61,743 nucleotides of DNA, from the IMG/VR virus record IMGVR_UViG_3300032893_000044, positions 1-61,743 of that record. The stretch is one strand, 5' to 3'. Under the pieces are notes generated by a model. The model was not told where the DNA came from, did no database searches, and worked only from the letters and a program-made list of their open reading frames with translations. This document shows positions 1-24,943 of the stretch, piece by piece (position 1 is the stretch's first letter; each line of letters opens with the position of its first letter). Source of the stretch: a virus (lineage: Duplodnaviria; Caudoviricetes). Both the position numbers and the translations under genes were made by a program.

Positions 1-27
1 ACAGTCTGATTGTGGATTATCCCAACG
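1..27. repeat. Terminal direct repeat / assembly overlap, left copy
   Basis: ACAGTCTGATTGTGGATTATCCCAACG vs 61717-61743 ACAGTCAGAGTGTGGATTATCCCAACG, 2 mismatches. Confidence 0.85.
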
Positions 28-188: not shown

Positions 189-198
189 GGAACACGAA

Positions 199-795: not shown

Positions 796-805
796 GGGGA
801 ATATC

Positions 806-2750: not shown

Positions 2751-2756
2751 CCCTTC

Positions 2757-3503
2757 ATGAAAAAAAATCAACAGCTAGCAGATTGGAAAAAAGCAGAGTC
2801 TTTGGGTCAAGAGATGGAACGCTATTATGTTGCTTTAAGGCACCAGGAAGAAGAAGACCAAGAGACCAAAAGACAATTAGGCTTCATCAAACAAAAAGGA
2901 CAGCGTGCGCTTGCAAAAAGAGAAGCCTCTCATAAAGGCAAAGCCAAAGAAGTACCCGAAGCAAAGCCTTATACGCCGCCTCCAAGAGGCCCGTTACCAG
3001 AGCCCGTCCCTTATGGGTTTAAGTTAAAGGTACCGGTTGGCACTAATTTTACGAATGAACCTGAGTATACAGTAACAAACCCCAAAGCGGTTCCTATGCC
3101 GGCAGGGACACCTTATCTAAGACCGGGCGCAACGCCGGCGGAAGTCGCTAAATATACTGATGAATTTGCGCGTTATCATCAAGCGCCGCTGCCAGAGCCG
3201 GTTGTTCAAAAGCCAGAGAGACACGCAGCCCCTCAAAAAGGAAAACAGCGAGAAAGCGATTTGATGGCGTTAGCAAAATTTTATGCGCCTCCGCAATTTG
3301 TGCAATTTTTAATGAATCGCCCGAGCGGTTCGCATATGCCTTACTTAAATCCCTATAGCATGAATGTGATGCGAGAACAACAAGCCTTTGGTTTGCCAGA
3401 ACAAGTGGAGGTAGAGCCAGAACCCACTATTTATGAAAAAATCATGAAATATTTTAGCCCAGATTTTTTTAATCCTCAACAGTATTATGAGGGAGAGATT
3501 TAA
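2757..3503 (+). CDS. Hypothetical protein in ejection module, Pro-rich
   Basis: 248 aa ORF co-oriented in operon. Confidence 0.55.
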   Translation: MKKNQQLADWKKAESLGQEMERYYVALRHQEEEDQETKRQLGFIKQKGQRALAKREASHKGKAKEVPEAKPYTPPPRGPLPEPVPYGFKLKVPVGTNFTNEPEYTVTNPKAVPMPAGTPYLRPGATPAEVAKYTDEFARYHQAPLPEPVVQKPERHAAPQKGKQRESDLMALAKFYAPPQFVQFLMNRPSGSHMPYLNPYSMNVMREQQAFGLPEQVEVEPEPTIYEKIMKYFSPDFFNPQQYYEGEI

Positions 3504-9137: not shown

Positions 9138-9308
9138 GATGAGCTGGTAGTATTGTTTAGCCCATTTGATGTAGCGAATATGATGATATGTTAAGAGAGA
9201 GCGAATGACTTTGCTCGGCGGCCCATCTTTTTCGACTCTACAAGTGATTCCAAATAGATTTCCTAGAACGTAATGAGTTTTAGCAAAGTTTAATGCGGTT
9301 TCGGTCAT
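9117..9308 (-). CDS. YY-motif small protein (cluster A)
   Basis: PSKVIRSLL..WAKQYYQLIL. Confidence 0.7.
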   Translation of the reverse strand: MTETALNFAKTHYVLGNLFGITCRVEKDGPPSKVIRSLLTYHHIRYIKWAKQYYQLILVSEKA

Positions 9309-9493
9309 ACTTTCCCCACTATGATTTTATAGTATTCTTTGGCCCCAATGTGGTCAAAATAATTTACTAAGAGGGCGCAAATGACTGTGCTTGGCGACGC
9401 ATTTCTTGCTATTATCAAACCGTATCCAAATACGCTTCCTACGACGTAATGAGTTTCAGAAATGTCTAATGAGGTAAATTCGGTATATGTCAT
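9305..9493 (-). CDS. YY-motif small protein (cluster A)
   Basis: PSTVICALL..AKEYYKIIVG; ATGA overlap. Confidence 0.7.
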   Translation of the reverse strand: MTYTEFTSLDISETHYVVGSVFGYGLIIARNASPSTVICALLVNYFDHIGAKEYYKIIVGKV

Positions 9494-9675
9494 TTTTCCC
9501 CCACTATGATTTGGTAATACTGTTTAGCCCAATCGATACCTTCAAAGTTATTATTTAACAAGTGATATGATAAGAATTCTTCGATAACTTCACAGGGTAA
9601 ACTTTTTTTTGGAACAAAACAACATGCGCTCGATCCCCTGAGGATGTAATAATTTTCATCAGACTTTTGTATCAT
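9490..9675 (-). CDS. YY-motif small protein (cluster A)
   Basis: PCEVIEEFL..WAKQYYQIIVG. Confidence 0.7.
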   Translation of the reverse strand: MIQKSDENYYILRGSSACCFVPKKSLPCEVIEEFLSYHLLNNNFEGIDWAKQYYQIIVGEK

Positions 9676-9856
9676 TTTTCCCCCATACAACTAAATGATA
9701 ATACTCTTTGACGAAAAAGCATCTATTAGAAAGAGTACGTAAAAAGCATGAAAGTATTTCGGCAGGATGAATATTGCTAGGAATACCATAGGGAAAAGTT
9801 TTTGAGATGATATAATGGGAATCTAGATTAGAGATAAAGCGAGGAGCTTCTGCCAT
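9659..9856 (-). CDS. YY-motif small protein (cluster A)
   Basis: PAEILSCFL..VKEYYHLVV. Confidence 0.7.
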   Translation of the reverse strand: MAEAPRFISNLDSHYIISKTFPYGIPSNIHPAEILSCFLRTLSNRCFFVKEYYHLVVWGKNDTKV

Positions 9857-10044
9857 AATTGGTCCTTTATAATATACTTGTAGTAAGCTTTAACCCATGC
9901 GAGCTCATGCCCCTTTAACATGTGTTTTAGCGTTTCAGTAGGTGTTTCACGACCACGCACGAAGACCAATCTGCCATAAGCTTTTAACGTTAGCTTAGGC
10001 GTGCCATAGTGTATATAAAACGCAGGATTTATGTTTTGCATCAT
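9823..10044 (-). CDS. YY-motif small protein (cluster A)
   Basis: PTETLKHML..WVKAYYKYII. Confidence 0.7.
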   Translation of the reverse strand: MMQNINPAFYIHYGTPKLTLKAYGRLVFVRGRETPTETLKHMLKGHELAWVKAYYKYIIKDQLWQKLLALSLI

Positions 10045-10202
10045 TTTTGCCTCATTATACGCTTGTAGTAATCTTTAACCCACATGAGCTCATTGTTAGT
10101 GTCAGTGAACATGTATTTTAGCGTTTTAGGAGGTGTGCCAGGACCATATACGAAGCATGTACCGCCATAAGCTTGTAACACAATATTTATATTTTGCATC
10201 AT
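10041..10202 (-). CDS. YY-motif small protein (cluster A)
   Basis: VYGPGTPPKTLKYMF..WVKDYYKRIMR; close paralog of 35063-35239. Confidence 0.7.
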   Translation of the reverse strand: MMQNINIVLQAYGGTCFVYGPGTPPKTLKYMFTDTNNELMWVKDYYKRIMRQK

Positions 10203-10414
10203 GCTTTCCCCACTATGATTTGGTAGTATTCTTTGGGCCATTTTAACAGACTACCGGTAATAAAGAGGAGACGTTCTAGCGCTGCGCCTGGGTTGGCATT
10301 TTTAGAGACAGCGCAACCATAACCAAAATAAAAATTGCTTGAAAGTATGTGATATTCAGTATAAATATGAGGAACAAAAGAATGCGTATACAGTATTACT
10401 TCCTGTTCCATCAT
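10199..10414 (-). CDS. YY-motif small protein (cluster A)
   Basis: PGAALERLL..WPKEYYQIIVG. Confidence 0.7.
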   Translation of the reverse strand: MMEQEVILYTHSFVPHIYTEYHILSSNFYFGYGCAVSKNANPGAALERLLFITGSLLKWPKEYYQIIVGKA

Positions 10415-10424
10415 TCTTTCGCTC

Positions 10425-10787
10425 TCATACTTGTCGTGGCTTTGAAACAGTACATACTCGGCCTATCACAAATTGATAATATTCTTTCAAAAATTTCTGG
10501 TAGCGTGGATCTGCCCAAAAGTCAAAGCTGAGTTTTAAAAACTCAGTAGGACTCATCAAAATCATTTTTCGCGTAATAGTGTGTAGATAATGAAAATGAT
10601 GGTTAATCATACTAATTAGAAGTTTTCTTTCTTGTTCTGTATATTGGGAATACCCATTCTTAGTAACTAAACCATAATACTGCCTAAAAAAAGGCAAAAC
10701 AACGGACATCCAGCGTTGTGTTCTAGCGATATGCCACCATACTTCATAAGGAGCATAACCTAAGAAATCAGTAGGATTAAGTACCAT
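10425..10787 (-). CDS. YY-motif protein with two tandem modules (cluster A)
   Basis: PTDFL..FFRQYYGLV and PTEFL..FLKEYYQFVIG. Confidence 0.7.
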   Translation of the reverse strand: MVLNPTDFLGYAPYEVWWHIARTQRWMSVVLPFFRQYYGLVTKNGYSQYTEQERKLLISMINHHFHYLHTITRKMILMSPTEFLKLSFDFWADPRYQKFLKEYYQFVIGRVCTVSKPRQV

Positions 10788-10883
10788 ATTTATTCCTAAG
10801 GTACGGCCTTTTCATAGCCAAATTCCCCCCGCTCTCAGTGCCTAAAGAGAGGGGAGGGTCCTTGGTGAGGGAAAGCAACAATA

Positions 10884-11294
10884 TTAGTCAATGACAGGGA
10901 AAATCTGCCCTTCTAAGTCTGCTTGACGCTGTGAGCGCATAATGTATAAGCCTTTTTTCAAAGGAACAGGATTATGCTCACCGGTGGGTCGATCTTCTTT
11001 CATATGGTGATGTTCTAGCGTTGTATCTTCTTTAACCACAACCAAAAAGGTATTGAAGCGATCCATATTGGCCGCTTTGTAAACCGTTACTTTGCCCGGA
11101 TCTGCTACCCGGTGATGATGCGCGGTTGCTTCACCTTCGATAATCGTAATGCCGCCCTTTTCATCTAATCCCAATTTTTCTAGCGTTTTTTCAAAGGTGC
11201 TCATATCTAAACTGCAATCACCAATCGCTAAACAAGTGCTATCGCTAACTCGATTAAAATAAACATCCCCTTGATGACCACTGTAATTTTCCAT
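10884..11294 (-). CDS. Conserved His-rich protein, usual partner of DUF6745-type proteins
   Basis: HQGDV..EGEATAHHH..EH..L.KGLY..QR motif. Confidence 0.65.
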   Translation of the reverse strand: MENYSGHQGDVYFNRVSDSTCLAIGDCSLDMSTFEKTLEKLGLDEKGGITIIEGEATAHHHRVADPGKVTVYKAANMDRFNTFLVVVKEDTTLEHHHMKEDRPTGEHNPVPLKKGLYIMRSQRQADLEGQIFPVID

Positions 11295-11356
11295 GTTAAC
11301 TCCTAAATTAGTTTAATTAAACTCTACCCAATTTTACCTCAATTTTGACAAAAAAG

Positions 11357-11590
11357 CTACTTCGCCTTCTTTTTAAGCGCAGGGGCACACTGCCCCTCTA
11401 ACGTTTGACGTAATTCTTCCAAATCCACCTTTAATTTTTTCAAATGGAAGATATACTCACTCATCGGCACTTGCTTTTTTGCCAAACTATTCATCTCTTT
11501 TTCAATATATTCGTCAACATCATCAGAATATGTTGCCAACGTATCGACTAACAACTCATATTGAAATTGAGTTAATACAATATTTAACAT
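11357..11590 (-). CDS. Hypothetical protein
   Basis: 77 aa ORF coupled to upstream gene. Confidence 0.55.
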   Translation of the reverse strand: MLNIVLTQFQYELLVDTLATYSDDVDEYIEKEMNSLAKKQVPMSEYIFHLKKLKVDLEELRQTLEGQCAPALKKKAK

Positions 11591-12558
11591 TAAGCCTCCA
11601 CCACCGGATTATATTCACCAGGATTAAGGCCCCAAGTCCAACCAATTGCATCCAACAAATTAGCAAAAGGTATATTCACTTCTACTATTTTTTGCGAATG
11701 AATCGGGTGATCTGCGGGTAATAATCCAGCCTTCTTCATAATCAATAAATTACTCGGCACCAAATCGACTTGATCAATATTACCAACAACCGCTAACGAC
11801 CGGGTTACCCTATCTTCATCTTCGTCCTCGTCGTCATCTTCATCACCATCATCGTTTTGAACCTTCGGAAGCTTCGCCAAAAGCGCCTTCACTTTTTCAT
11901 TGTCATAAGCAAAATATTGACCACAAGGCACTTCAGTTTTTTCTCCACCTTCAGTTTCAGCATCCATCTTTAAAAGGCCTTGCACATATATCTTAAAGCC
12001 ATCCGGCGTTAAACCAATTTTGACACGTTCTTCTGGGGTCATGGCATCAGCCCCGGGCTCCATCGTGCGATTAATCAGCTTTAAGGCAAACCCCACTCGA
12101 ATAGTCCCGTTTTCCTCAGGAATTTCTAGCTTATAAATAGCCGCAAATTGATAATCTTTATCATTAATAGGACTCATATACAGCGAACCGCCGCCATCTT
12201 TAATAAAGTCCTCAAAACCTTTGTTCTTCCATCGACGAATCATCGAAGTGCGGATTTCAGCATTGGGGATACAAAATATTTGGTCAACCCTTAATAAATC
12301 TCCTGACCAGAGAAAGAACAACGCATAAGGAATTTTATAGCGATTACTGGTGATTTCAATCATACCATCCGCTTCTACTGCATCAAAAAAACGATCTGGC
12401 GACATCGCAATTTCTAAATGTTGCATCTGTTCTTCTGAAAGCTTCCACTCTTTGACTTGATCAATCGTTAGTTTTAACTTATTTAAGCGCTCTGGCGATA
12501 AATCGCTAGGTAATACTAATCCAGTTAACTCGATACCTTCTGAAACTTGGGATTGCAT
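11590..12558 (-). CDS. DUF6745-like protein
   Basis: NAEIRTSMI, LINRTMEP..DG.K.Y, AIGWTWGL..EYNP..EA motifs; acidic insertion. Confidence 0.6.
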   Translation of the reverse strand: MQSQVSEGIELTGLVLPSDLSPERLNKLKLTIDQVKEWKLSEEQMQHLEIAMSPDRFFDAVEADGMIEITSNRYKIPYALFFLWSGDLLRVDQIFCIPNAEIRTSMIRRWKNKGFEDFIKDGGGSLYMSPINDKDYQFAAIYKLEIPEENGTIRVGFALKLINRTMEPGADAMTPEERVKIGLTPDGFKIYVQGLLKMDAETEGGEKTEVPCGQYFAYDNEKVKALLAKLPKVQNDDGDEDDDEDEDEDRVTRSLAVVGNIDQVDLVPSNLLIMKKAGLLPADHPIHSQKIVEVNIPFANLLDAIGWTWGLNPGEYNPVVEA

Positions 12559-12610
12559 GCACGTTGCTCCTTGTTACCATAAATCCAAAAATCATTATAG
12601 AATAATTGAC

Positions 12611-12997
12611 TTAGCTTTGTAAGTCAATGACTTTATGACTCGCCTTTTTAAAATGATATTGATAAAAATTTTTCCATACTTGAATATAAAGCTCACGTAT
12701 CGAAAAATCTTCAAAAAGATATTGCATGACTGTTTTAAAATAAGAATATTTCAAACGTCTTTTTAATTTTGTATATTTATTTTTAACACAAAACAATCTC
12801 TCTACCCAGAGCGGCTCAAGGTTAAAGCTTTCCCAGTTACCATAGACTTTATAGCCATAATCATACTCACACGCTAAACTTCTATTTTTAGGAAGCATCA
12901 GCACCTGACAATCAAAAGCTATATGGAATTCTGGCCTACTCCAATAGATAGAAGGCCCTAAGAAAAGAGCCTTCTTTTTTCGTTTTTTATGGGCCAT
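12611..12997 (-). CDS. Hypothetical basic/aromatic protein
   Basis: 128 aa ORF in leftward operon. Confidence 0.5.
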   Translation of the reverse strand: MAHKKRKKKALFLGPSIYWSRPEFHIAFDCQVLMLPKNRSLACEYDYGYKVYGNWESFNLEPLWVERLFCVKNKYTKLKRRLKYSYFKTVMQYLFEDFSIRELYIQVWKNFYQYHFKKASHKVIDLQS

Positions 12998-13215
12998 TAA
13001 GAAGTCCTGGCTAGATCATTAATAAAATAGCCATACAACTTTTCATCGACATGACCCGACTGAGCCGGCCATTCATCTGATTGCGGGGTTGCTTCATATT
13101 TAACGCAAGGTTCTCCGTCACAATATTCCCATAAACCCAAACTTTCCATTAAGTATTGCATTTTTAAAACAGGAATGTGACGACTCACCTTAAATGTTAC
13201 AATTATATCTTGCAT
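12997..13215 (-). CDS. Hypothetical protein
   Basis: 72 aa ORF with AAGGA RBS. Confidence 0.5.
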   Translation of the reverse strand: MQDIIVTFKVSRHIPVLKMQYLMESLGLWEYCDGEPCVKYEATPQSDEWPAQSGHVDEKLYGYFINDLARTS

Positions 13216-13234
13216 ATCCTTATCTCCCTTTAAA

Positions 13235-13924
13235 TTAAACTTTAGTTTTCAGCCTTTTAATGGCCTGTAACGCTTGCTTTTCCGTTAGTTCATGGAAAGT
13301 ACCTACTTTATAGTATTCTAGCATTTTAGCAATACCCTCAGTATCTAATTTTTCAAAAGCGATTTCCTTTAACTCATTTAAGGTCGGCTCTAAAACAAAA
13401 TGCTGCGTCACATCATCGACACTAGACGGCCTGACCGCCGGTACGGGTATTGTTTTAACCGGTGCATTGATGCGCTTAGGTGAAGCTTTCTTGATATCAC
13501 CTTCCCCTTCATCTTCTGGACTTTCTTCAGACTGAGTAATGCCTAAAATAGCCATCAGAGCATATCTGCGCCCATAACTAATGGTAGCTCCTACAGATTG
13601 GATCCACCCTTTGCCCCGCATTTCTTCCACCATCAAATCTAAAGAAGACTGTAGCCATTGTCCAGAATTATGCAACAATAGAGTGGTAATTCTGACTGAT
13701 TTGTTGCATTCTCCTTCAATATGCTGTGTGATACTGAGCCCTTGTTGCGCTAAAAGCTTTCTTACTTGCCCTAATAAATTTTCTAAGGTGGCATAATCAT
13801 AACTATATTTTTTGCCTTCCCGAGTCAGCACATCGACATGACCATCTTTTTTAATATCCGAAACCAGCGTTTGAAATTGCGCTAAGGCTTGAGACAACTC
13901 TTTCAACTCTGTTGAATTATGCAT
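13235..13924 (-). CDS. erf: ERF-family single-strand annealing recombinase
   Basis: Y.YATL, LLHNSGQW..S, QSVGATISYGRRYALMAILGI signature. Confidence 0.9.
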   Translation of the reverse strand: MHNSTELKELSQALAQFQTLVSDIKKDGHVDVLTREGKKYSYDYATLENLLGQVRKLLAQQGLSITQHIEGECNKSVRITTLLLHNSGQWLQSSLDLMVEEMRGKGWIQSVGATISYGRRYALMAILGITQSEESPEDEGEGDIKKASPKRINAPVKTIPVPAVRPSSVDDVTQHFVLEPTLNELKEIAFEKLDTEGIAKMLEYYKVGTFHELTEKQALQAIKRLKTKV

Positions 13925-13975
13925 CTTTCCTTACCCCTGTTATTTGTTAGATACCTAAACCCTTTACTTTTAATA

Positions 13976-13990
13976 CTTTACTTAGTAAAG
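13976..13990. promoter_or_regulatory. Palindromic operator CTTTAC-N3-GTAAAG between divergent erf and RHH genes
   Basis: Perfect 6-bp arms next to TATAAT; related sites at 22531, 28663, 32897, 33861. Confidence 0.6.
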
Positions 13991-14023
13991 TATAATCATA
14001 TTTTTTTTTAGAGAGGATGTAAA

Positions 14024-14260
14024 GTGATTAAGAAAAAAAGAAGCACGGCGGAACGTTTGGCTTTACAAGAAGAACGCAAGAATCGGGTCACCTACATTAA
14101 ACTTCCTTCTTCGGCCGTGAAACAGGAACTAAAAGCGATCGCTCGCGCTGAAAACTTAACGTCTTTGTCTGCTTTGCTGCATATTTGGATTTTAAGAGGT
14201 TTAGAACAGTATAAAGCAGATAAGCAAATGAATCCGGAAACCAAATTAATTAAGTTTTAG
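14024..14260 (+). CDS. Ribbon-helix-helix (Arc/CopG-like) transcriptional regulator
   Basis: VTYIKLP..VKQELKAIARAEN.SLSALL strand-helix-helix pattern. Confidence 0.6.
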   Translation: MIKKKRSTAERLALQEERKNRVTYIKLPSSAVKQELKAIARAENLTSLSALLHIWILRGLEQYKADKQMNPETKLIKF

Positions 14261-14650
14261 ATAGTCGGTGAGACCTTTTTTAGCCTCATCGACGCTATAC
14301 CAGACCATAGTCTGATAGCCCAGTTCTTGGCAAGACGTTAAGAACTCCTGTTGGCTTTCAGTTAGTTTGTTTCCTTTAGTCTTAAATTCAGCGACAAGGC
14401 CGTGATAGGATGCTCGGGGATAAAGACAGATAATATCGCTGACGCCGGGAGTGACGCCTTCTGCTTTGAGTAGTTTTGCTTCTAGCGCATGACGGCTGCC
14501 GCCATTGGCGGGGTGAAAGGTCACTTTGCGTACCTGCGGGTATTGGTAGCGGAGCCATTGAAAAAATGCGCGTTGATGTTGCGCTTCTTGGCGTCGGGGT
14601 TTTTTGCGAGGCTTTTTAGGGGCTGGGGTAAGCAAATTTAGCATAATCAT
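14246..14650 (-). CDS. VRR-NUC domain nuclease
   Basis: FHPANGG..LKAEGVTPGVSD..EFKT..LTESQQEF. Confidence 0.9.
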   Translation of the reverse strand: MIMLNLLTPAPKKPRKKPRRQEAQHQRAFFQWLRYQYPQVRKVTFHPANGGSRHALEAKLLKAEGVTPGVSDIICLYPRASYHGLVAEFKTKGNKLTESQQEFLTSCQELGYQTMVWYSVDEAKKGLTDYLKLN

Positions 14651-15021
14651 AATCGGTCAGTTTTACGGGGCCTCCCTCGTCCTTTGTAAAAAGTGGGTAC
14701 TTCGGCAGCGGGAGGAGGTTTTAAGGATTTAGGTCTGCCGGGTCCTTTTTTCTCTGGCAAGAGCGATTGAATACCCAGCTTACGAGGATAAGGTAGTTTT
14801 TCTGCTGGGGGTTCAGCGCTGATTGTGTCAACCTTTTTGTCAACTTCAGGAAGGGGTTCAGGCTTAGGGGGGGTAATGGGCGCTTTAGTCTCAGCAACGG
14901 GATTTTCATTAGCGAAGGTATAAGCCATCCCAATCGCGGTTAAGTAGGTATGTCCTTCTTTGACTAAGGTTTTGACATTTTCCTCAATAATTTTGCGGCT
15001 ATTCCCAGTCTTCATCATCAT
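14647..15021 (-). CDS. Small phage protein with AT-hook-like motifs
   Basis: N-terminal G.S.K.I.ENV..L..EG..AI.MA motif; GPGRPK and GRGRPRK. Confidence 0.6.
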   Translation of the reverse strand: MMMKTGNSRKIIEENVKTLVKEGHTYLTAIGMAYTFANENPVAETKAPITPPKPEPLPEVDKKVDTISAEPPAEKLPYPRKLGIQSLLPEKKGPGRPKSLKPPPAAEVPTFYKGRGRPRKTDRL

Positions 15022-15418
15022 TATCGGTTTCCTGTTTATTGCGTTTAGACTCCGTCATATACCCTTCTTCACGTCCTACCATATATTCCCATCGTTTAGG
15101 CGCTTCACAGGGTTTCCATACTTCAAACCATTGGGCTTTTTCGGGAAGGCCAATTTTTTGAGTAGAAATCTCATAGGCATAGGCATATTTTTCTAAATGC
15201 GTATCTAAAATGCGAAGCGTATCTAATGAATGAATGATCGCGTGCATATCTATAATATCAAAAATCGTTTCGCTTGCGCTTAAAAACTTGTTAAAACCGC
15301 GCAGTTCATCTTTAATCACTAAGCCTTTTTGATACTGCGGTTCATGCTTGATCATGCCAACCTTACGAAGGGAATGAGTATGGGGAATGGTCTTAATCAA
15401 CAAATAGCGATATTGCAC
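14999..15418 (-). CDS. Hypothetical protein
   Basis: 139 aa ORF, GAGG RBS. Confidence 0.5.
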   Translation of the reverse strand: MQYRYLLIKTIPHTHSLRKVGMIKHEPQYQKGLVIKDELRGFNKFLSASETIFDIIDMHAIIHSLDTLRILDTHLEKYAYAYEISTQKIGLPEKAQWFEVWKPCEAPKRWEYMVGREEGYMTESKRNKQETDNDDEDWE

Positions 15419-15543
15419 TACACCCTCATTTAGCTTTTAAACTAAGTCAAGCATAAGAGTTTTTAAAATCGCTCGTCAACGCGCTACTACACATACTGCA
15501 AAAAATCAGTTATGCTGTGACGGTTTCACTAAAAAGGATTTTT

Positions 15544-15996
15544 ATGCAGCTAAACACCCTACAGGATACTAGTCTTTATTTTCATCTTCATAGTCTTTAC
15601 TTACACACGTCCCGCTTATACGGGAGTGCGCTACGTCCTTTAGGATTAGTGCCTGAACAATTTATGCTCTTAGTTGCATTGCAAACCATCCATATCGCAG
15701 CAAACTTAGCAAAAACTTTATCGGTTAATCGCACGACTTTATCGCGTACGTTAAAGACGTTAGCCGCGCGTCAGCAGATCCAAATCAAGAAAGTGAGAAC
15801 CGCTAAAAATCGCTTGCAAAAGCTTTATGAGCTCACGCCTAAAGGCCAAGATATTCTTAAAAAGGCTACGTTAGAATGGCGTAAGGTAGAGCTTTATCTG
15901 AAAAACAATTTAGAGCAAATGTTGCCGGATTTTGTCACAACTTCTGGCTGGATGACAGAAAGAATAAAGGAGTTAAAAATGATGACACACTCTTAA
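15544..15996 (+). CDS. MarR-family winged-helix regulator
   Basis: LRPLGL..QF.LL, LAKTLSVNRTTLSRTLK.L, ELTPKG. Confidence 0.8.
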   Translation: MQLNTLQDTSLYFHLHSLYLHTSRLYGSALRPLGLVPEQFMLLVALQTIHIAANLAKTLSVNRTTLSRTLKTLAARQQIQIKKVRTAKNRLQKLYELTPKGQDILKKATLEWRKVELYLKNNLEQMLPDFVTTSGWMTERIKELKMMTHS

Positions 15997-16015
15997 CTCC
16001 TTTCATGGTCTTTTT
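15966..16015 (+). terminator. Hairpin at the end of the marR-like gene, probable terminator
   Basis: AAAGGAGTTAA...TTAACTCCTTT inverted repeat followed by a T run. Confidence 0.4.
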
Positions 16016-16219
16016 GAAAATTTTTGTTTAAAAGTTTTCGAGAAGATTTAGGCAGTTACAAGCTACTTAGGTGTGAAACTAATTAGCCTTAACTTTGAGA
16101 CGCTACCCCAAACACAAGCTCCAAAAACAACAAAAACAAACAAAACCCTGTTAGCGACCATAGGGGTAGCGTATCAGAGCTGTAACTAAAGTGCAAGTAC
16201 AATTTACTTAGAGACAGCT

Positions 16220-16879
16220 ATGAAATTTGAAACCTGTAAATCTATTTATTCAACTTCTGTTAATAAACTAACTGGTATTGAGAAAGCTTTATTAATTTAC
16301 CTTTGCTATCGCACGAATGCGGAGGGAAATGCTTTCCCCAGTTTGAAGCGGATCAGTCGCGATATTAGTTACTGCTTAACAACAGTTAAAGGCACCATCA
16401 AAAGCCTCATTGAAAAAAACTTCATCCGGAAGATCCCAGCAGTCCCCCAATCCTCCCGACGCTCCAATGTTTATCAACTAAATCATAGCATGCTCTTTGC
16501 TCAGAAGCCTGTGGATAACTCTGTTGATAAGTACCGAAAATCTGTGGATAAGTTTGTGGATAAGTTGTTAGTAAATAGCCGGGTGGATAAACATACAGGG
16601 CGCGAGGCGACCACAGAATATATTAATAATATAAATACTAACCCTTATAATAATATTATAGTTAATCGAGGAGGGACGGCTTATCAAAAACAGCAATTAA
16701 AAGAAAAAGAAAAAAGGCAATTGGCTTATCTGCTCGCTTTATGCAAGCAAAGAAGCGTTTCTCAAAAAGCGGTACCTGTGGTCATTCCTGAGACTATACC
16801 TCCCTTAACCCCCCGTGCGCCTAAGACCTTAGCGGCCATCCTAGGAGAAAAAAATGTTACCTACGGCCAATTACGCTGA
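16220..16879 (+). CDS. Phage replication initiator with N-terminal winged HTH
   Basis: EKALLIYL..AFPSLKRI..S..TV..IKSLIEK..I..SNVY; internal DnaA-box repeats. Confidence 0.8.
   Translation: MKFETCKSIYSTSVNKLTGIEKALLIYLCYRTNAEGNAFPSLKRISRDISYCLTTVKGTIKSLIEKNFIRKIPAVPQSSRRSNVYQLNHSMLFAQKPVDNSVDKYRKSVDKFVDKLLVNSRVDKHTGREATTEYINNINTNPYNNIIVNRGGTAYQKQQLKEKEKRQLAYLLALCKQRSVSQKAVPVVIPETIPPLTPRAPKTLAAILGEKNVTYGQLR
16510..16665. promoter_or_regulatory. Putative replication origin: five DnaA boxes plus AT-rich stretch
   Basis: TGTGGATAA at 16510, 16543, 16555; 1-mismatch boxes at 16522, 16582; AT-rich 16617-16665. Confidence 0.7.
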
Positions 16880-17531
16880 GTTAGTGGCTAGCGCGGAGCG
16901 CATTTTAACGCGCTTAACTCGTCACGTCCCCAATCACCAGCTAGATAACTGGCAAATGGTTAATTTGATTAAGCAGCATGGGGTGGAAAAGGTATTGATG
17001 ACGTTAAAGGCGGTGATCGAGAACAAGACGGGGAACGTAGCAAACTTTCCTCGTTATTTAAAAAGCTGTTTGCATGGTGGCTGGGAGCTTGCTGAAACGG
17101 GCCAAGGTGCCACGAACGGCAAAAACCGTCATCACACATATGAAGAAACGCAAGTCACGCTAGAATCGCAAAATCTTTCGTTTAAACGCACAGTTGAGAA
17201 AGAGCAGCGCATGCGAGAGATTTGGCAAGCATTACCGGTTGAGCAGCGTTACCGGATCAAGGCGTGGTTAAAAGCCTCTCCGTTGGAGCAATTGATGCCT
17301 GAGCAGATTTTGCAGCGGTCTTTACGGGCATTAGAGGCGGATGAACCTGATCGAGGGTCTTTTACGCTTTTGAATTTTGCTGAAACTCATATTCCTGAAG
17401 AATTTAGTTTACCCAAGCCTGATTTGAGTGTTTTAGGAGAAAAAGAAAAACCTGTTAATAAGCTGATTAATGAGCTAGAAAAAAAATTTGGCGCAGTTCA
17501 AGTGGAAGTTAAGCCCCAAACTTGGGGCTAA
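16854..17531 (+). CDS. Replication-associated hypothetical protein
   Basis: Overlaps initiator gene; V.N.PRYL..CL..GW initiator-C-terminal-like motif. Confidence 0.55.
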   Translation: MLPTANYAELVASAERILTRLTRHVPNHQLDNWQMVNLIKQHGVEKVLMTLKAVIENKTGNVANFPRYLKSCLHGGWELAETGQGATNGKNRHHTYEETQVTLESQNLSFKRTVEKEQRMREIWQALPVEQRYRIKAWLKASPLEQLMPEQILQRSLRALEADEPDRGSFTLLNFAETHIPEEFSLPKPDLSVLGEKEKPVNKLINELEKKFGAVQVEVKPQTWG

Positions 17532-17559
17532 TAAATTAAGGATTAAAATATGTCTTGCA
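17506..17559 (-). ncRNA. Putative sRNA unit 1
   Basis: TTGACA(17594-89)-17-TAGATT promoter; unique segment; AGCCCC-AAGTTT-GGGGCT-TAACTT. Confidence 0.65.
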
Positions 17560-17608
17560 CAATCCAATCTAGCGCGATTTTAAACAAATGTCAAGCGTAA
17601 TCTATCGA

Positions 17609-17674
17609 AAGTTTAGCCTCTAAGCGAGGCTAATGTAAGTGGTAAATTAGAAACCTATACAAAATGTAGCTTGA
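17609..17674 (-). ncRNA. Putative sRNA unit 2
   Basis: TTGACA(17710-05)-18-TATCTT with extended TG; AGCCTC-GCTTA-GAGGCT-AAACTT. Confidence 0.65.
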
Positions 17675-17713
17675 AAAATTAAGATAGCATAATGGCTAAT
17701 AAAATGTCAAGAG

Positions 17714-17773
17714 AAGTTTAGCCTCTAAGCGAGGCTATATAGTATTTCACAGTTAAGAGGATCATGCCTGATC
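17714..17773 (-). ncRNA. Putative sRNA unit 3
   Basis: TTGACA(17809-04)-18-TATATT; AGCCTC-GCTTA-GAGGCT-AAACTT. Confidence 0.65.
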
Positions 17774-17812
17774 AAGTATAATATAGCCTAATAACTAGGT
17801 GCATGTCAAGTG

Positions 17813-17857
17813 AAGTTAAGCCCCCTTTGGGGCTATTTTTTTTAAGCGTGACATGAA
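17813..17857 (-). ncRNA. Putative sRNA unit 4 (no separate promoter seen)
   Basis: AGCCCC-AAAG-GGGGCT-TAACTT directly downstream of unit 5. Confidence 0.5.
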
Positions 17858-17906
17858 AAGTTAAGCCCCTCACGGGGCTAAAAAAATGTACTTAGCAATG
17901 ATTAGC
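17858..17906 (-). ncRNA. Putative sRNA unit 5
   Basis: TTGACA(17941-36)-17-TAAGCT; AGCCCC-GTGA-GGGGCT-TAACTT. Confidence 0.65.
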
Positions 17907-17930
17907 TTTTTTAGCTTATGGGAGAGACTT

Positions 17931-18173
17931 ATGATTGTCAACTGGGTTGCGGAATTTTTTGATACGGTGGTCTCGGTAGCTGGCAAATATGCCAGGTGGT
18001 TAAATATCAAAGGGAGACGGATTTGTTTTTTGATATGGGCTATCTGTTCCGTGTACTGGGTGGGGCGAGATATTGCGGTGGGACTTTATTCCCAAGCGGC
18101 TTTTGCAGTTTTTTCGGTAGGATTAAATGCCTATGGTTTTTTTAATTGGAAGAAAAATAAAATTGGAAATTAA
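17931..18173 (+). CDS. Small PnuC-like membrane protein
   Basis: Hydrophobic helices; LNIK..CFLIW..LYSQ..YGFFNWKK; GGAGAG RBS. Confidence 0.6.
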   Translation: MIVNWVAEFFDTVVSVAGKYARWLNIKGRRICFLIWAICSVYWVGRDIAVGLYSQAAFAVFSVGLNAYGFFNWKKNKIGN

Positions 18174-18211
18174 AGCTTGACACTTTTTAAAAGTCTCTTT
18201 ACACTTCAATT

Positions 18212-18272
18212 GACCATGAGTGTTAGTACTGTTATCGATGGTAAAAACTAGCCCCGGCAGGGGCTCAACTTT
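18212..18272 (+). ncRNA. Putative sRNA unit 6, leader of the ProQ/FinO gene
   Basis: TTGACA(18177)-17-TACACT; AGCCCC-GGCA-GGGGCT-CAACTTT ending 17 nt before ATG. Confidence 0.65.
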
Positions 18273-18289
18273 ATCGTTATGGAGGATGA

Positions 18290-18883
18290 ATGATGGAACA
18301 GCAACAAAAACCTTCTCGCAAAGTGCGGATGTCTGTTGGTCTTTTTGAAAAAGGACTAACCATTTTAAATGTTTTAAAACAAACTTATCCTAAATGTTTT
18401 TTTGAACCCGGTAAAGAAAAGCCTTTAAAAAAAGGTATTTTGTTAGATTTATTGCAAGCATCGGGTTTATCCTTTGAATCTCCTTCCTATCAAGCGATTA
18501 CAGCGGCAATTAATATTTACACAAGCACATTGAGTTACCGGGTAGGTTTAATTCGAGAAGACGCAGTACGCATTGATTTAGAAGGCAATGAAGTTGAGCC
18601 GATTAATTTACGGGAAAGAACTCAGGCAAAAATAGAAAAAATGAATTTTGAATGGAAGTTGAGCATGGCAGAAGCGGTGATGGCAAAAGATATTCGTAAA
18701 CAAGCCGGTTTTCATTATGCGCGCGATCGAAAAAGAAAAGAAGCTAAAAAGGCAACTATGTCCACGGTTGAAATGGCAGATAAAAGTGATGTGATAAACA
18801 CTGAAGCTGTATCAGCTTTGCCTGTCAAAAAGGAAACAATGCCTAAAATTGTTTTTAAAAAGAGGTTAAGCCAAGGGGTTTAA
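18290..18883 (+). CDS. ProQ/FinO-domain RNA chaperone
   Basis: L...YPKCF..KPLKKGI..DL..AI..YT....Y..GL...AVRIDLEG..V signature; basic C-terminal extension. Confidence 0.9.
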   Translation: MMEQQQKPSRKVRMSVGLFEKGLTILNVLKQTYPKCFFEPGKEKPLKKGILLDLLQASGLSFESPSYQAITAAINIYTSTLSYRVGLIREDAVRIDLEGNEVEPINLRERTQAKIEKMNFEWKLSMAEAVMAKDIRKQAGFHYARDRKRKEAKKATMSTVEMADKSDVINTEAVSALPVKKETMPKIVFKKRLSQGV

Positions 18884-18886
18884 AAG

Positions 18887-19327
18887 TTATGGTAATGTTA
18901 ATAAGATTTTCAGGAGTTCTTTTAAATCATTAAACTTGCTAAACAAAGTTAAATTTAAACGAGCATCCTCATCTATGGTGCTGTATAAAAATTTGTCATA
19001 TATCGATGTTAATGATGAGAAGCCATAACTCACATTTTTTATTCCTCCGTGCATGACATTTGCATAGCCAGTTGCTGATGATGAGAATCCATGACTAAAT
19101 CTCATAGACCTTCGAAAAGTAATGCGTTGACTGGTCATTCTTAAACTTAAAAACAACGCTTTTAAGACGCACCCTAAAAAATGCTTTGGATATCTTTTAG
19201 CATGTTGTAAATAAACTTTAAGCTGCACCTCAAACTCAACGACAGAGCTTTTTCTTTGATAAAGCCGCCAGATATCTTCAATGAAGACTTGTTGTTCAGA
19301 GGTAAACCAATCTACTTTTATATTCAT
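18887..19327 (-). CDS. Hypothetical protein
   Basis: 146 aa ORF. Confidence 0.5.
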   Translation of the reverse strand: MNIKVDWFTSEQQVFIEDIWRLYQRKSSVVEFEVQLKVYLQHAKRYPKHFLGCVLKALFLSLRMTSQRITFRRSMRFSHGFSSSATGYANVMHGGIKNVSYGFSSLTSIYDKFLYSTIDEDARLNLTLFSKFNDLKELLKILLTLP

Positions 19328-19332
19328 AAAAA

Positions 19333-19704
19333 TCAGTCAAAGAATATTTTTTTGGCTATGCTTTTGCAAGAATAATCTCGTAAAGCAGCGTAAAAGAGCG
19401 TTTGCAAGATCTCTTTTTTAACGGCAACACTGAAATATTCAACAGCCGAATGATCAAACATCATCGGGTCTTTGTTGATAAAGCGATACGCTATTTTTTG
19501 ACTTTCATTCCAAAGATTATAAAAAACAGGAGCGCCTTCTTTGATAGGCTCTAATAATACCGCCGCGTGGCCTAACCCCCATTCTGATTGATAAGCTTTT
19601 TCTTTTTTTTTCGTTCCTACAATAGGCTCTGTTAGCCAGCCCATAGCTATCTCTCGACCGATGAAAGCCAATCTGAATCCGGCTTTAAAAGCGGTTCTTC
19701 GCAA
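19333..19704 (-). CDS. Hypothetical protein (start may be MGWL at ~19644)
   Basis: ORF in leftward unit. Confidence 0.45.
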   Translation of the reverse strand: MRRTAFKAGFRLAFIGREIAMGWLTEPIVGTKKKEKAYQSEWGLGHAAVLLEPIKEGAPVFYNLWNESQKIAYRFINKDPMMFDHSAVEYFSVAVKKEILQTLFYAALRDYSCKSIAKKIFFD

Positions 19705-19801
19705 AGATAAGTCAATATTAAGTCTGGCTTTTGCTTAGTATAGTCTTTAACCATCTCTTTTAAAATTTTGACCTCAATGGGGCTTAAATCAAAATCTTCA
19801 T

Positions 19802-20011
19802 TCATGCTTCACCTCTTTCTTTTAGGGGCAACTCTGGCGCAGTATCACTTAAAACAACCGTTTCTTGCTTCCCCGTATTATCTTCATAAATAAAAGTTAA
19901 TGTCCAGCGGATAGGCGTTACCCGCTGACGAGCTTCTACGCAACATTGATGAATAGCTTGTTTAACCCGAATCAATAACCCATGATTTAGCCCGAACAGT
20001 CTTTCAATCAT
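19802..20011 (-). CDS. Hypothetical protein
   Basis: GAGG RBS; TTGACA at 20077-72 upstream. Confidence 0.5.
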   Translation of the reverse strand: MIERLFGLNHGLLIRVKQAIHQCCVEARQRVTPIRWTLTFIYEDNTGKQETVVLSDTAPELPLKERGEA

Positions 20012-20121
20012 TTTAACCTCGCTTTACCCAATCCTTTACCGCGCTTTACTTATAGAAGATAAGAATCCTACTGTCAAGTTATTTTTGTTGCATTTTTCTT
20101 AAACCTTCTTTAGAATAAGGC

Positions 20122-20168
20122 CAAATGTTTCTATTGGTCATAATTTAGCCCCTTCGGGGGCTTTACTT
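20122..20168 (+). ncRNA. Putative sRNA unit 7
   Basis: TTGCAT(20088)-17-TAGAAT; AGCCCC-TTCG-GGGGCT-TTACTT. Confidence 0.65.
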
Positions 20169-20195
20169 CTGATTTACCCCTTGTTACTATACGTT

Positions 20196-20246
20196 TCGAT
20201 GTCGATGATATTTCTTATTTTTAGCCCCTTCGGGGGCTTTAATTTT
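20196..20246 (+). ncRNA. Putative sRNA unit 8
   Basis: TTTACT(20162)-17-TACTAT with extended TG; AGCCCC-TTCG-GGGGCT-TTAATTTT. Confidence 0.6.
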
Positions 20247-20296
20247 CTTCTCCTCTGTTAAAACGAAAAAGATAGCCTCGTTAGAGGCTTAACTTT
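20245..20296 (+). ncRNA. Putative sRNA unit 9 (no separate promoter seen)
   Basis: Anti-SD-like TCTCCTC segment; AGCCTC-GTTA-GAGGCT-TAACTTT. Confidence 0.55.
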
Positions 20297-20297
20297 C

Positions 20298-20326
20298 TTG
20301 ACCGAATTTTAATTTACCCCTATCCT
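20298..20326 (+). promoter_or_regulatory. Sigma70-type promoter upstream of terminase small subunit
   Basis: TTGACC-17-TATCCT. Confidence 0.5.
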
Positions 20327-20374
20327 TTCTAAGATGCCTAAATTATTAGGTATTTAGTTATTAACTAACTAAGG

Positions 20375-20926
20375 GTGACAATGGCCGCTCCGACAGGGAA
20401 CAAGTTTGGATTGCGATTTTCGAAGGGATTCGATCCACGAAGGAGTGGCCGTAAGCCTTGGAATCCTGATTTCAAAATCAAGTATGACAAAGAAGAACCT
20501 CAGCTTTTAGATAGGCTCTTTGATATTGCTCGTTTTGACCCCAATCCCGGGGTAGCTTTGAATGCGATTATTTACCTCATGAGTATGCGCTATGGCCGTC
20601 CGGTGGACATGGTCCAAATGAAGCAGCTGAATGAGGAATTTGAGCGTCGAGAAGCGGAAGAAAACGCCATTACCTTTACGCAAGAACACGCCCTTTTAGC
20701 CGCGGACGTGATTAAGAATCAAGGGGTGGAAGCTGACATTTTAAAACTCATGCGCACCCTTTATAGCTCGGGCATTTTAGGCTCTCTTTATAGTCAATTT
20801 GAAGCAGAAGCCCAACAAAGTGAACCTCTCTTAATTTCTGCTGCTGAATCCATTGACAATGACGCTTGCCAAGGATACAGTGAGGCAAGCAAACAAGGAG
20901 AAGGAGAGCAGGACAATGATTGCTAA
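20375..20926 (+). CDS. Putative terminase small subunit (DUF5681-like N-terminus)
   Basis: AAP.GNKFG.RFSKG.DPRRSGRKP; YL..MRYGRP. Confidence 0.55.
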   Translation: MTMAAPTGNKFGLRFSKGFDPRRSGRKPWNPDFKIKYDKEEPQLLDRLFDIARFDPNPGVALNAIIYLMSMRYGRPVDMVQMKQLNEEFERREAEENAITFTQEHALLAADVIKNQGVEADILKLMRTLYSSGILGSLYSQFEAEAQQSEPLLISAAESIDNDACQGYSEASKQGEGEQDNDC

Positions 20927-22589: not shown

Positions 22590-22781
22590 ATGAACATATT
22601 TCGCTATTCTCGGGAAGACTTGGAACAAAAGAAGCAGCGGTTTGTGGAAGAAATTTTAAGGTTAGAGCAGGAAGCCGCATTTGAAAGCCCCGCTGTCCGT
22701 CAGCAAATGCAGCAAGAGATACGACGGCATCAAACTTCTGTGGTCTTTTTAGAAGAAGACCTGTACGAAATGAGTGTTTAA
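22590..22781 (+). CDS. Hypothetical coiled-coil protein
   Basis: GGAGG RBS. Confidence 0.55.
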   Translation: MNIFRYSREDLEQKKQRFVEEILRLEQEAAFESPAVRQQMQQEIRRHQTSVVFLEEDLYEMSV

Positions 22782-23950: not shown

Positions 23951-24943
23951 GTGATTATGTATTTATTTTTATTTATTGCAATTTTAGCGCCGGCGGCGTT
24001 TTTCCTTTGGCATCAATTTAAACATGATAGATGCTGTACTGAATTGGGATGGTTTATAAACGGGGGTATAGCTGCTGTCTATGTTGTACTGATGATGATT
24101 CTTACCTCCCAATGTATTGTGCAAATTAAGCCGGGAGAGGTTGGGGTGGTCGTGGACATGTTGGGGTCACAAAAAGGGGTAGAAGATGAAGAACTCACGG
24201 TGGGTTTCCATTTTCTGTTACCGTGGAAAGATGTCTATCATTTTCCGATTTATGAGCAAAATCATCAGTGGATTGATGCAGATGGCTTTAATTTCCAAAC
24301 CATTGAAGGGTTATCTGTACATGCTGATTTAGGGATCACCTATCACTTATCTCCGGACAAGGTACACGAGCTTTTTTGGCGTTATCGCCGGGGGATGGAA
24401 GAAATCACCCATCTTTTTGTGCGTAACAATATCCGAGATGCCATCAATCGGGTCTCTTCCCGGATGAAAATTGAAGAACTTTACGGTGATAAAAAGGAAG
24501 AATTTTTTACGACCGTTCAGCGTCAAGTTCAAGGAGAGCTAGAAAGCCTTGGGTTTAAAATTTCTCATCTCTACATTATCGGGCAATTTAAGGTCCCTCC
24601 CATGGTCATGGAGGCTTTAAACCGCAAGATTGAGGCAACCCAAAAAGCCCAGCAACGCGAAAATGAACTCCGAGAGGCCGAAGCCGAAGCTAGAAAAGAA
24701 ATCGCTAAGGCGGAAGGAGAAGCAAAATCTCGCTTACTCAAAGCCAAAGCTGAAGCCGATGCGATCTATGTTCAAGCCGAAGCTAAAGCTAAAGCCAACC
24801 AGCTTTTAACCAAGTCCCTCAGCGATGAACTCATCATGTGGGATATGGTAAACCGTTGGGATGGAGTGATGCCTAAAATTACGGGGGACAAAGGCATGAT
24901 TATACAATTACCTATGTTAGGGGCAGAACATGGCAAAAATTAA
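23951..24943 (+). CDS. SPFH/band 7/prohibitin-domain membrane protein
   Basis: IKPGEVGVVV, FQT.EGL, AQQRENELREAEAEARK..AKA.G.A, WDG.MP. Confidence 0.9.
   Translation: MIMYLFLFIAILAPAAFFLWHQFKHDRCCTELGWFINGGIAAVYVVLMMILTSQCIVQIKPGEVGVVVDMLGSQKGVEDEELTVGFHFLLPWKDVYHFPIYEQNHQWIDADGFNFQTIEGLSVHADLGITYHLSPDKVHELFWRYRRGMEEITHLFVRNNIRDAINRVSSRMKIEELYGDKKEEFFTTVQRQVQGELESLGFKISHLYIIGQFKVPPMVMEALNRKIEATQKAQQRENELREAEAEARKEIAKAEGEAKSRLLKAKAEADAIYVQAEAKAKANQLLTKSLSDELIMWDMVNRWDGVMPKITGDKGMIIQLPMLGAEHGKN

Follow-up and report, generated by a model that had tools for sequence, protein, structure and literature searches.

What do nine copies of one small hairpin, crowded around the gene for an RNA chaperone of the ProQ/FinO type, do in the early region of a tailed phage? 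The question is raised by IMG/VR record IMGVR_UViG_3300032893_000044, a viral sequence of 61,743 bases (CheckV completeness 100) that was analysed over its whole length and is called the window below. A preliminary description of this DNA had proposed an array of nine small RNAs, each with a guide segment of its own and all with a constant 3´ handle, served by the phage chaperone. The reading we prefer is a different one, and we would give it about an even chance: the locus would specify short, mostly cis-antisense RNAs of the early region together with a leader attenuator, all of them sharing a terminator-like hairpin and tail and plausibly serviced by the adjacent FinO-domain protein. That the units are transcribed, that their transcripts end at the hairpins, that they act as antisense RNAs and that the protein binds them are steps that we infer from sequence, and the case is a singleton.

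The hairpin family and the strand it is read on

The pattern AGCCYC-N3-7-GRGGCT matches the window exactly nine times, starting at 17512, 17615, 17720, 17819, 17864, 18250, 20147, 20223 and 20274, where 0.01 matches would be expected. None of 100 shuffles reaches nine, and the same pattern read backwards finds no match in the window. All nine hairpins of the preliminary description are thus present, and they are the only ones. They are confined to 2.8 kb (17500-20300) around the FinO-domain gene, lie in both orientations and make up 9 of the 21 perfect GC-rich hairpins of 6 base pairs (bp) found in the whole window. In the order of the positions given, we refer to them as E, D, C, B, A, F, G, H and I.

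Aligned on their tails, the copies share 14 invariant columns (T-AGCC-C...G-GGCT-.A.TT). A T precedes the stem, the stem is formed by AGCC(C/T)C and G(G/A)GGCT, and the tail reads (T/A/C)(A/T)A(C/A)TT. Pairing is intact in all 54 cells of the nine stems, one stem position having changed from C-G to U-A in three copies (C, D and I). A covariance model built from the nine copies, R1, scores these sites at 38.6-44.6 bits on the strand defined by the tail and at 10.9-15.9 bits on the opposite strand; nothing else in the window exceeds 15.9 bits, and that best score outside the family is itself a family hairpin read on the wrong strand. There is thus a genuine element here, with a definite orientation, and it occurs nowhere outside 17500-20300.

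The loops differ from copy to copy (GUGA, AAAG, GCUUA, AGUU, GGCA, UUCG and GUUA across the family); six copies have their stem arms 4 nucleotides (nt) apart, two have a spacer of 5 nt and the remaining copy has one of 6 nt. Read on the tail-defined strand, the six loops of 4 nt are GUGA, AAAG, GGCA, UUCG, UUCG and GUUA, four of which belong to the stable GNRA or UNCG classes, an enrichment with P = 5e-5 given the base composition (8e-4 if G and H are counted once). On the opposite strand the same six loops read UCAC, CUUU, UGCC, CGAA (twice) and UAAC, and none is of either class. Because stable loops occur on one strand only, the tail is strand-specific, the spacer varies and five copies stand at a constant distance after strong promoters, the evidence favours an element that acts as an oriented hairpin at the RNA level.

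The same features bear on the idea that these are DNA sites, namely asymmetric 23-bp iterons or operators with an internal palindrome, bound by the O-like initiator or by neighbouring helix-turn-helix proteins. The replication genes do end just upstream of the sites, four of the tails come within 8-20 nt of a -35 box, as an operator might, and 6-bp arms around a short spacer may resemble lambda-type palindromic iterons. A spacer of 4, 5 or 6 bp is tolerated by a hairpin loop, but not easily by an operator with two half-sites; the tetraloops that are stable as RNA are enriched on one strand only; the stem change affects both arms alike and leaves them paired; and the sites, which occur in both orientations, extend over 2.8 kb. 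We rate a DNA-level role as very improbable. Lambda-type origin iterons were considered as such and set aside, as the spacer is not fixed, the sites are not clustered and a separate repeat cluster lies within the initiator gene.

That cluster is a better origin candidate. The lambda-O-like replication initiator (16220-16879, plus strand; Pfam HTH_36, E 7.8e-11, with matches to PHROG replication-initiation families) contains, within 54 bp (16510-16563, plus strand), three exact copies of TGTGGATAA, the only three of the window, and a near copy, TGTTGATAA. The 9-mer TGTGGATAA is what we take to be the reverse complement of the DnaA-box consensus. The cluster is likely to be the origin of replication, which lambda too has within its initiator gene.

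Could the copies imitate CRISPR repeats, as solitary repeat units or RNA anti-CRISPRs, or as a degenerate mini-array? As in CRISPR arrays and solitary repeat units, a constant structured element alternates with unique segments, and a hairpin with a handle of about 8 nt presumably resembles class 1 CRISPR repeats. Unlike them, the phage units have their own promoters, differing loops and irregular spacing (45, 99, 105, 103, 76 and 51 nt between hairpins), and the constant part would lie 3´ of the variable part in one RNA rather than being a processed repeat. The strict motif occurs at a single site in 596 Gb of one-per-species prokaryote genomes, so that no represented host has a CRISPR array with this repeat. 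With non-identical loops, spacings anywhere from 45 to 105 nt and one genome-collection match, the units were not taken as a CRISPR array or solitary repeat units, and mimicry has hardly any likelihood in our eyes.

No Rfam family reaches its gathering score over the whole window, nor an E-value up to 1 over 17400-20450. Nut sites, in which boxB presents a conserved loop to the antiterminator and boxA lies upstream, were also rejected: here the loops vary, and the conserved single-stranded part lies 3´ of the hairpin, not 5´.

Predicted transcripts and the sequences they face

TTGACA occurs 41 times on the two strands of the window, and only seven of these boxes are followed by a good -10 box, that is, one with at least four of six matches together with A2 and T6. 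Four of the seven lie in this locus, three of them on the minus strand (17809, 17710 and 17594) and one on the plus strand (18177). The locus has one more perfect TTGACA, at 17941 on the minus strand, which is paired with TAAGCT, a match of 3/6. Each of the five boxes stands 62-79 nt upstream of a hairpin, the hairpins following the promoters by 27-43 nt. Seven sigma70 promoters had been claimed, five of them with TTGACA: the five boxes hold, four having a -10 box with at least four of six matches, while the remaining two candidates reach only 8/12. These precede G and H, and are TTGCAT-17-TAGAAT at 20088 and either TTTACT-17-TACTAT at 20162 or TTGTTA-17-GATGAT at 20181.

RNA ends were predicted on the assumption that transcripts start 7 nt past the -10 box and end 8 nt past the stem. 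Four putative units run on the minus strand. Unit E (17504-17594) has the promoter TTGACA-17-TAGATT (17594-17566) and a hairpin at 17512-17529 with a 7-bp stem, loop AGUU and tail UAACUU, giving a predicted RNA of 56 nt from about 17559 to 17504. In unit D (17607-17710), TTGACA-18-TATCTT, accompanied by a TG (17710-17681), is followed by a hairpin at 17615-17631 with tail AAACUU, and in unit C (17712-17809) TTGACA-18-TATATT (17809-17780) by one at 17720-17736 with the same tail; their RNAs would measure 68 and 62 nt. Unit A (17856-17941) combines TTGACA-17-TAAGCT (17941-17913) with a hairpin at 17864-17879 (loop GUGA, tail UAACUUUU) and would yield 51 nt. Hairpin B (17811-17843, the hairpin itself at 17819-17834) has the family tail on the minus strand, T8 on the plus strand and no promoter of its own; it comes 29 nt after the hairpin of unit A.

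On the plus strand, unit F is the promoter and leader of the FinO-domain gene, hereafter proQ (18177-18289). Its promoter, TTGACA-17-TACACT (18177-18205), is followed by a hairpin at 18250-18265 (loop GGCA, tail CAACUUU), which sits between this promoter and the ribosome-binding site GGAGGA ahead of the ATG at 18290; a 62-nt RNA is predicted. Units G, H and I (20088-20297) carry hairpins at 20147-20162 (UUCG), 20223-20238 (UUCG) and 20274-20289 (GUUA). In the predicted folds of A, C, D, E and F the family hairpin forms and the tail stays unpaired.

The transcribed 5´ parts are mutually unrelated, and alignment is confined to the hairpin, its tail and the -35 box that comes next. Over 44 nt, C and D have promoter regions with 75% identity, as would be expected if a cassette of terminator and promoter had been duplicated in tandem. 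No credible open reading frame (ORF) was seen in units C, D and E, where frames of 30-33 amino acids run through the hairpins and lack ribosome-binding sites. The claim that all units are non-coding needs qualification at two places: hairpin E overlaps the last codons of the ORF at 16854-17531, and F lies in the proQ 5´ leader. A promoter of its own and the lack of an ORF, two features of an independent small RNA gene, are found together in A, C, D and E, with F a leader, all five being predicted transcripts. Since B, H and I have no convincing promoter, we count at most about six units, not nine: A (with B), C, D, E, the leader F, and G (with H and I).

A further promoter-like sequence, TTAAGA-18-TATAAT, is found on the plus strand in the region 17753-17843, where it shares the -10 region 17777-17785 with the minus promoter of unit C. 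An RNA of about 55 nt, reaching the T8 of hairpin B and produced back to back with that of unit C, is possible.

What would the minus-strand RNAs pair with? On the plus strand a U-tract follows hairpin B but none of E, D and C, for which reason the rightward replication transcript should reach about 17843. The untranslated stretch before that point is matched over their full length by the complementary units C, D and E, of which E extends into the last codons of the ORF at 16854-17531. Unit A lies in antisense orientation to the 5´ region of a small membrane ORF, just upstream of its probable start at 17933. On these coordinates we prefer to see cis-antisense RNAs in units A, C, D and E.

The antisense reading can be put together as follows. 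The nine elements would be terminator-like 3´ stem-loops, in which a GC-rich stem of 6-7 bp is capped by a stable loop and followed by an unpaired (U/A)AACUU tail, and they would punctuate a regulatory hub of the early region. Four strong promoters of host type (A, C, D and E) would each fire a non-coding RNA of 50-70 nt that ends at its hairpin. RNAs C, D and E would pair with the untranslated stretch crossed by the rightward replication transcript before terminator B, RNA E reaching the 3´ end of the last gene of the replication module, and RNA A would oppose the 5´ region of the next gene. The fifth promoter would drive the FinO-domain gene through hairpin F, which may be an attenuator, the source of a leader-derived small RNA, or both, and G, H and I would be three more copies stacked before the next rightward operon. 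The FinO-domain protein would grip the stem base and 3´ tail, as FinO, FopA, RocC and ProQ do with their ligands; it would thereby protect the RNAs and speed sense-antisense pairing, and so tune replication and early gene expression.

Lambda offers a layout of the same kind. Its OOP RNA is short and leftward, has its own promoter and terminator hairpin, lies beside the replication genes and overlaps an early gene at its 3´ end, a layout that unit E would share. OOP is single and is not known to have a dedicated phage chaperone, whereas the phage studied here would have four tandem units with a shared handle.

The unrelated 5´ segments admit another explanation, the one favoured in the preliminary description: a multiplexed, reprogrammable trans-antisense system, with one chaperone and a constant 3´ handle, directed by interchangeable 5´ guides against mRNAs of the host or of rival elements. 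Worded more broadly, it would be a private kit for modular riboregulation, in which the handle AGCCYC/GRGGCU plus (U/A)AACUU is fixed and a cassette of terminator, handle and promoter takes on new guides, like CRISPR without nucleases. Conservation of hairpin, tail and downstream -35 box next to unrelated segments agrees with this, as does the lack of any Rfam match among the units. We searched for trans targets within the phage with nine seeds and shuffled controls. The longest exact complements fall within the shuffled range, the best being 13 nt for I (reached by 4% of shuffles) and 13 nt for D (11%). Against 258 translation-start windows, only A and B stand out in duplex energy, and they do so in cis, overlapping the window of the ORF at 17886-18173. 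A patchy duplex of unit D at 22739-22776 (z = -3.6 from 25 shuffles) was not taken as significant. There are at most about six units with promoters rather than nine independent guides, and the protein lacks an equivalent of ProQ R58. Seed turnover is not observable, since no related array exists in the collections searched. A programmable guide array, seen neither in seed complementarity within the phage nor elsewhere in those collections, thus appears improbable, and we judge the modular kit to be just as improbable.

The FinO-domain protein and its candidate ligands

The ORF at 18290-18883 (plus strand) encodes 197 amino acids, of which residues 24-117 form the domain and are followed by a basic C-terminal extension. 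It matches Pfam PF04352 at 60.6 bits (cut-off 27, E 1.7e-16), and phmmer against the PDB retrieves E. coli ProQ (5nb9, E 1e-7), Legionella ProQ (6s10) and RocC (7rgs). On these sequence matches its identity as a FinO-domain protein is established, in agreement with the preliminary description. A sensitive scan of 1.84 billion representatives gave 200 relatives at E ≤0.001 and 18 at ≤1e-10, and a word-based search with the phage protein gave itself and one other.

RNA binding by E. coli ProQ needs Y70, R80 and R58, with K54, R62 and G37 (PMC10168233). We transferred this numbering by hand from the structure-match alignment and checked the offset against the residue names in PMC10168233. The pocket residues for the RNA 3´ end are kept, Y83 corresponding to Y70, R94 to R80 and G49 to G37; among 17 relatives Y83 and R94 are invariant and G49 nearly so.

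The shape of the hairpins is that of a FinO-domain site. The binding site of FinO domains comprises the foot of a terminator hairpin and 4-5 nt of single-stranded 3´ tail with a free 3´-hydroxyl, loop size being irrelevant, and the RocC-RocR structure has a U.U mispair at the stem base (PMC9674577). Below the closing G-C, ProQ ligands have A-U or G-U pairs or pyrimidine-pyrimidine mismatches, and FinO ligands a purine-purine mismatch (PMC12001967). In the phage motif the stem base is G-C, C-G, C-G in nine of nine copies, and below the closing G-C there is A-U in all nine, followed by U.U in six, U-A in two and U.C in one, a context of ProQ type. The tail is single-stranded in the predicted folds and reads (U/A)AACUU, not oligo-U. 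With a GC-rich base, A-U and then U.U, and a pyrimidine-rich tail predicted to be single-stranded, the likeness to FinO-domain ligands noted in the preliminary description is borne out.

In the FinO-FinP/traJ and FinO-RepX systems, as in the phage, the FinO-domain protein is encoded on a mobile element. The ligands there are short cis-antisense RNAs, gripped at a GC-rich terminator hairpin and 3´ tail (PMC9674577), and RepX has a part in replication, since it determines how many copies a cohabiting plasmid keeps (PMC8136791). The phage differs in having several predicted RNAs instead of one or two, all with one stem and tail sequence; in that its predicted antisense RNAs face the 3´ untranslated end of a replication operon and not a 5´ leader; and in the U.U or A-U (ProQ type) below the stem where FinO ligands have a purine-purine mismatch (PMC12001967).

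FopA of plasmid pCol1B9 is another FinO-domain protein of a mobile element; it binds and stabilises the antisense RNA Inc, which controls the mRNA of the repZ initiator (PMC9977716). The phage gene also adjoins a replication module, and FopA/Inc-repZ (PMC9977716) and FinO/RepX (PMC8136791) supply plasmid precedents for FinO-domain proteins in replication control. FopA has a single RNA partner and no reported family of repeated handles, whereas binding by the phage protein is a prediction. RocC with RocR, and chromosomal ProQ with its regulon of small RNAs and 3´UTRs, recognise the terminator-hairpin base and a 4-5 nt tail with its 3´-hydroxyl, and the equivalents of Y70 and R80 are kept in the phage protein; those of R58, K54 and R62 are not, and the known ligands of RocC and ProQ have varied U-rich tails, not a fixed (U/A)AACUU. 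The phage system would thus differ from FinO/FinP, FinO/RepX, FopA/Inc and RocC/RocR in being phage-borne, in comprising several RNAs and in having its fixed handle also in the leader of the chaperone gene itself.

In the open-access literature that we searched we found no phage FinO-domain gene flanked by small RNAs with a shared handle, and to that extent the statement that no such array had been described holds good. Plasmid and chromosomal FinO-domain proteins are known; phage-encoded ones are mentioned in the part of PMC9977716 drawn on here, which assigns none of them an RNA partner. If the antisense reading is true, the locus would be a compact, clonable test bed for how a FinO domain chooses its ligands, and would bear on sets of phage chaperones and small RNAs that time replication or the decision between lysis and lysogeny.

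Several observations weigh against the antisense reading. The first group concerns the protein. Of the basic residues in helix 3 of ProQ none is present, T71 standing for R58, Y67 for K54 and N75 for R62, and R58 was essential for all seven RNAs tested with E. coli ProQ (PMC10168233); without these equivalents the phage protein may have a different or weaker mode of binding. Neither RocC nor FinO discriminates by stem-base sequence, and FinO domains are reported not to read the stem or tail sequence (PMC9674577), so the phage protein leaves the fixed stem and tail unexplained. Either the protein does read sequence, or another factor reads the motif, and both outcomes would be informative.

The second group concerns the hairpins. 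Over 24 nt there is no difference between copies C and D, and a single loop base separates I from them, so the covariation, confined to one stem position, probably reflects one event, or two at the most; the compensatory pairing noted in the preliminary description stands. Hairpins B and I are without any promoter, and H is without a convincing one. Predicted hairpin energies range from -9.4 to -11.9 kcal/mol, and the first 8 nt after the closing G-C contain 3-6 U with a conserved AAC interruption, which makes poor U-tracts. Applied to the strand of the family tail, a simple terminator scan accepts A, C, G, H and I but not B, D, E or F. The family hairpins are plausible but weak terminators, with efficient intrinsic termination uncertain, and three of them (B, F and I) resemble ordinary terminators on the opposite strand. 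The third group is comparative: no second example of the locus was found, either of the motif in quantity or of its linkage to a FinO-domain gene, as detailed in the next section.

Possible terminators, relatives and the surrounding early region

These observations are the ground for a plainer explanation, that the family is ordinary transcription punctuation: duplicated, weak and partly bidirectional intrinsic terminators and insulators at the borders of small early operons, convergent or divergent, with the minus promoters acting by interference or collision with rightward early transcription rather than by their RNAs, and the FinO-domain gene a bystander. On the plus strand hairpin B runs into T8 and is the best canonical terminator of the region, probably the end of the rightward replication operon (17819-17843). 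Read on the minus strand, F is followed by AGTTTTTACC and I by ATCTTTTTCG, terminator-like in that direction too, and the tails of G and H are U-rich. Hairpin F could end leftward transcripts running antisense through proQ. As rightward proQ transcripts meet no terminator before G, H and I, the proQ and leftward operons may overlap convergently. Operon boundaries are indeed where the hairpins stand (where the replication module ends, between proQ and the read-through path of the leftward operon, and ahead of the operon at 20375). C and D, like G and H, are near-identical copies, which together with the similar promoter regions of C and D points to cassettes of terminator and promoter duplicated in tandem, and none of four related phages links such hairpins to a FinO-domain gene.

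Other facts fit punctuation badly. C, D and E each follow a strong promoter of their own with no gene to terminate, one copy stands between the proQ promoter and its ribosome-binding site, and termination alone would not fix the sequence of stem and tail while the loops vary. Terminator-like sites are in excess in 17300-20500 (12 against 3.1 expected, nine of these rows being family hairpins on either strand), and there is no comparable accumulation in 1-17400, where 18 were found against 21.4 expected (20501-61743 was not scanned). We regard punctuation alone as possible, though on the unlikely side.

Is there a second locus of this kind elsewhere? A scan of IMG/VR for hairpin plus tail returned 76 stretches, all with single sites except three large contigs that carry a different, high-copy palindrome, and in none of the 68 loci screened with model R1 (599 kb together) was another copy detected. 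Elsewhere the motif occurs singly, consistent with chance. In GenBank phages neither near nor distant DNA matches the window, and the phage ProQ protein has no match there either; its plasmid matches are only to proQ genes of chromosomal type (33-38% identity over 40% of the query), and the ProQ alignment search of the genome collection returned nothing.

Gene context was available for four phage records with FinO-domain relatives: G001, G002 and G003, whose proteins are 40-42% identical to that of the window, and G007, recognised by its Pfam match as the one among ten TerL-related records that holds PF04352. Neither the motif nor any family of hairpins with a repeated stem occurs in these four. 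The linkage of arrays to proQ/finO genes that the preliminary description would lead one to expect is therefore negative in all four records examined; this is weak evidence, as the FinO-domain proteins of G001-G003 are only about 40% identical. In G007 (L141 1249-2657) the FinO-domain gene directly follows that of an HTH_36 protein, with overlapping stop and start, and in G001 (L086 4784-7462) it is followed by the gene for a ParA-like ATPase. As in the window, the FinO-domain genes of these relatives belong to replication or partition modules.

In G003 two hairpins were seen downstream of the ProQ-like gene. The nearer (L088 ~8600-8660) has 10 bp, GGGAGCCCCG-9-CGGGGCTCCC, and a U-rich tail; the farther (L088 ~9190-9240) is CCCCCTTGT-8-ACAAGGGGG, followed by ATTAACTTTG. 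The stem core and the tail of the window motif thus occur on two different hairpins, to which R1 gives no score, and this could be chance.

The high-copy palindrome has the core AAGTTA-AGCCCCC-loop-GGGGGCT-TAACTT and conserved flanks of about 20 nt, some pairs lying about 60 nt apart. It was seen at L011, L015, L038, L054, L063, L074, L075, L083 and L084, all on one 172-kb IMG/VR contig, at L025 and L034, and at L041 and L044. It shares core and tail with the window motif, but its tail is base-paired (AACTT being part of a longer stem) and its flanks are constant. No FinO-domain ORF was found in the 84.5 kb of fragments examined.

The early region of the window has a lambdoid layout, with leftward genes from 15418 to 10425, among them an ERF-family recombinase (13235-13924, minus strand, E 4.6e-17), and rightward genes from 15517. 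The last gene of the rightward replication module is the ORF at 16854-17531 (plus strand), whose final codons overlap hairpin E on the opposite strand; it has no family in Pfam, PHROGs or Atlas and no relatives in IMG/VR. The small membrane ORF (17886-18173, plus strand) is weakly similar to the C-terminal part of PnuC (Pfam NMN_transporter, E 1.8e-4, under the cut-off), and its true start is likely to be the ATG at 17933, after GGGAGAG.

Beyond proQ, four small ORFs form a leftward operon (18887-20011, minus strand) behind the putative promoter TTGACA-17-TATAAG, which begins at 20077. Pfam, PHROGs and Atlas gave nothing usable for these four, and a La-domain match among the neighbouring proteins (E 0.0024, far below cut-off) was set aside. 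Two leftward ORFs, 19805-19647 (52 amino acids) and 19704-19333 (123 amino acids, from a TTG), have 58 nt in common that they read in different frames; a frameshift or an assembly error might account for this, or there may be two separate genes. A candidate promoter, TTGACC-17-TATCCT (20298-20326, plus strand), begins 8 nt past hairpin I and would serve the rightward gene starting at 20375 or 20381.

The window holds no tRNA genes, and no phage RNA polymerase, a possible user of the hairpin promoters, was found among its large ORFs. Tailed-phage genes are represented by the large terminase (28740-30353), the portal (39475-42060) and tail proteins, the terminase being at most 39.5% identical to GenBank phage terminases. 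Downstream of the hairpin cluster, an SPFH/Band 7 protein is coded at 23951-24943 (plus strand, E 4.6e-25).

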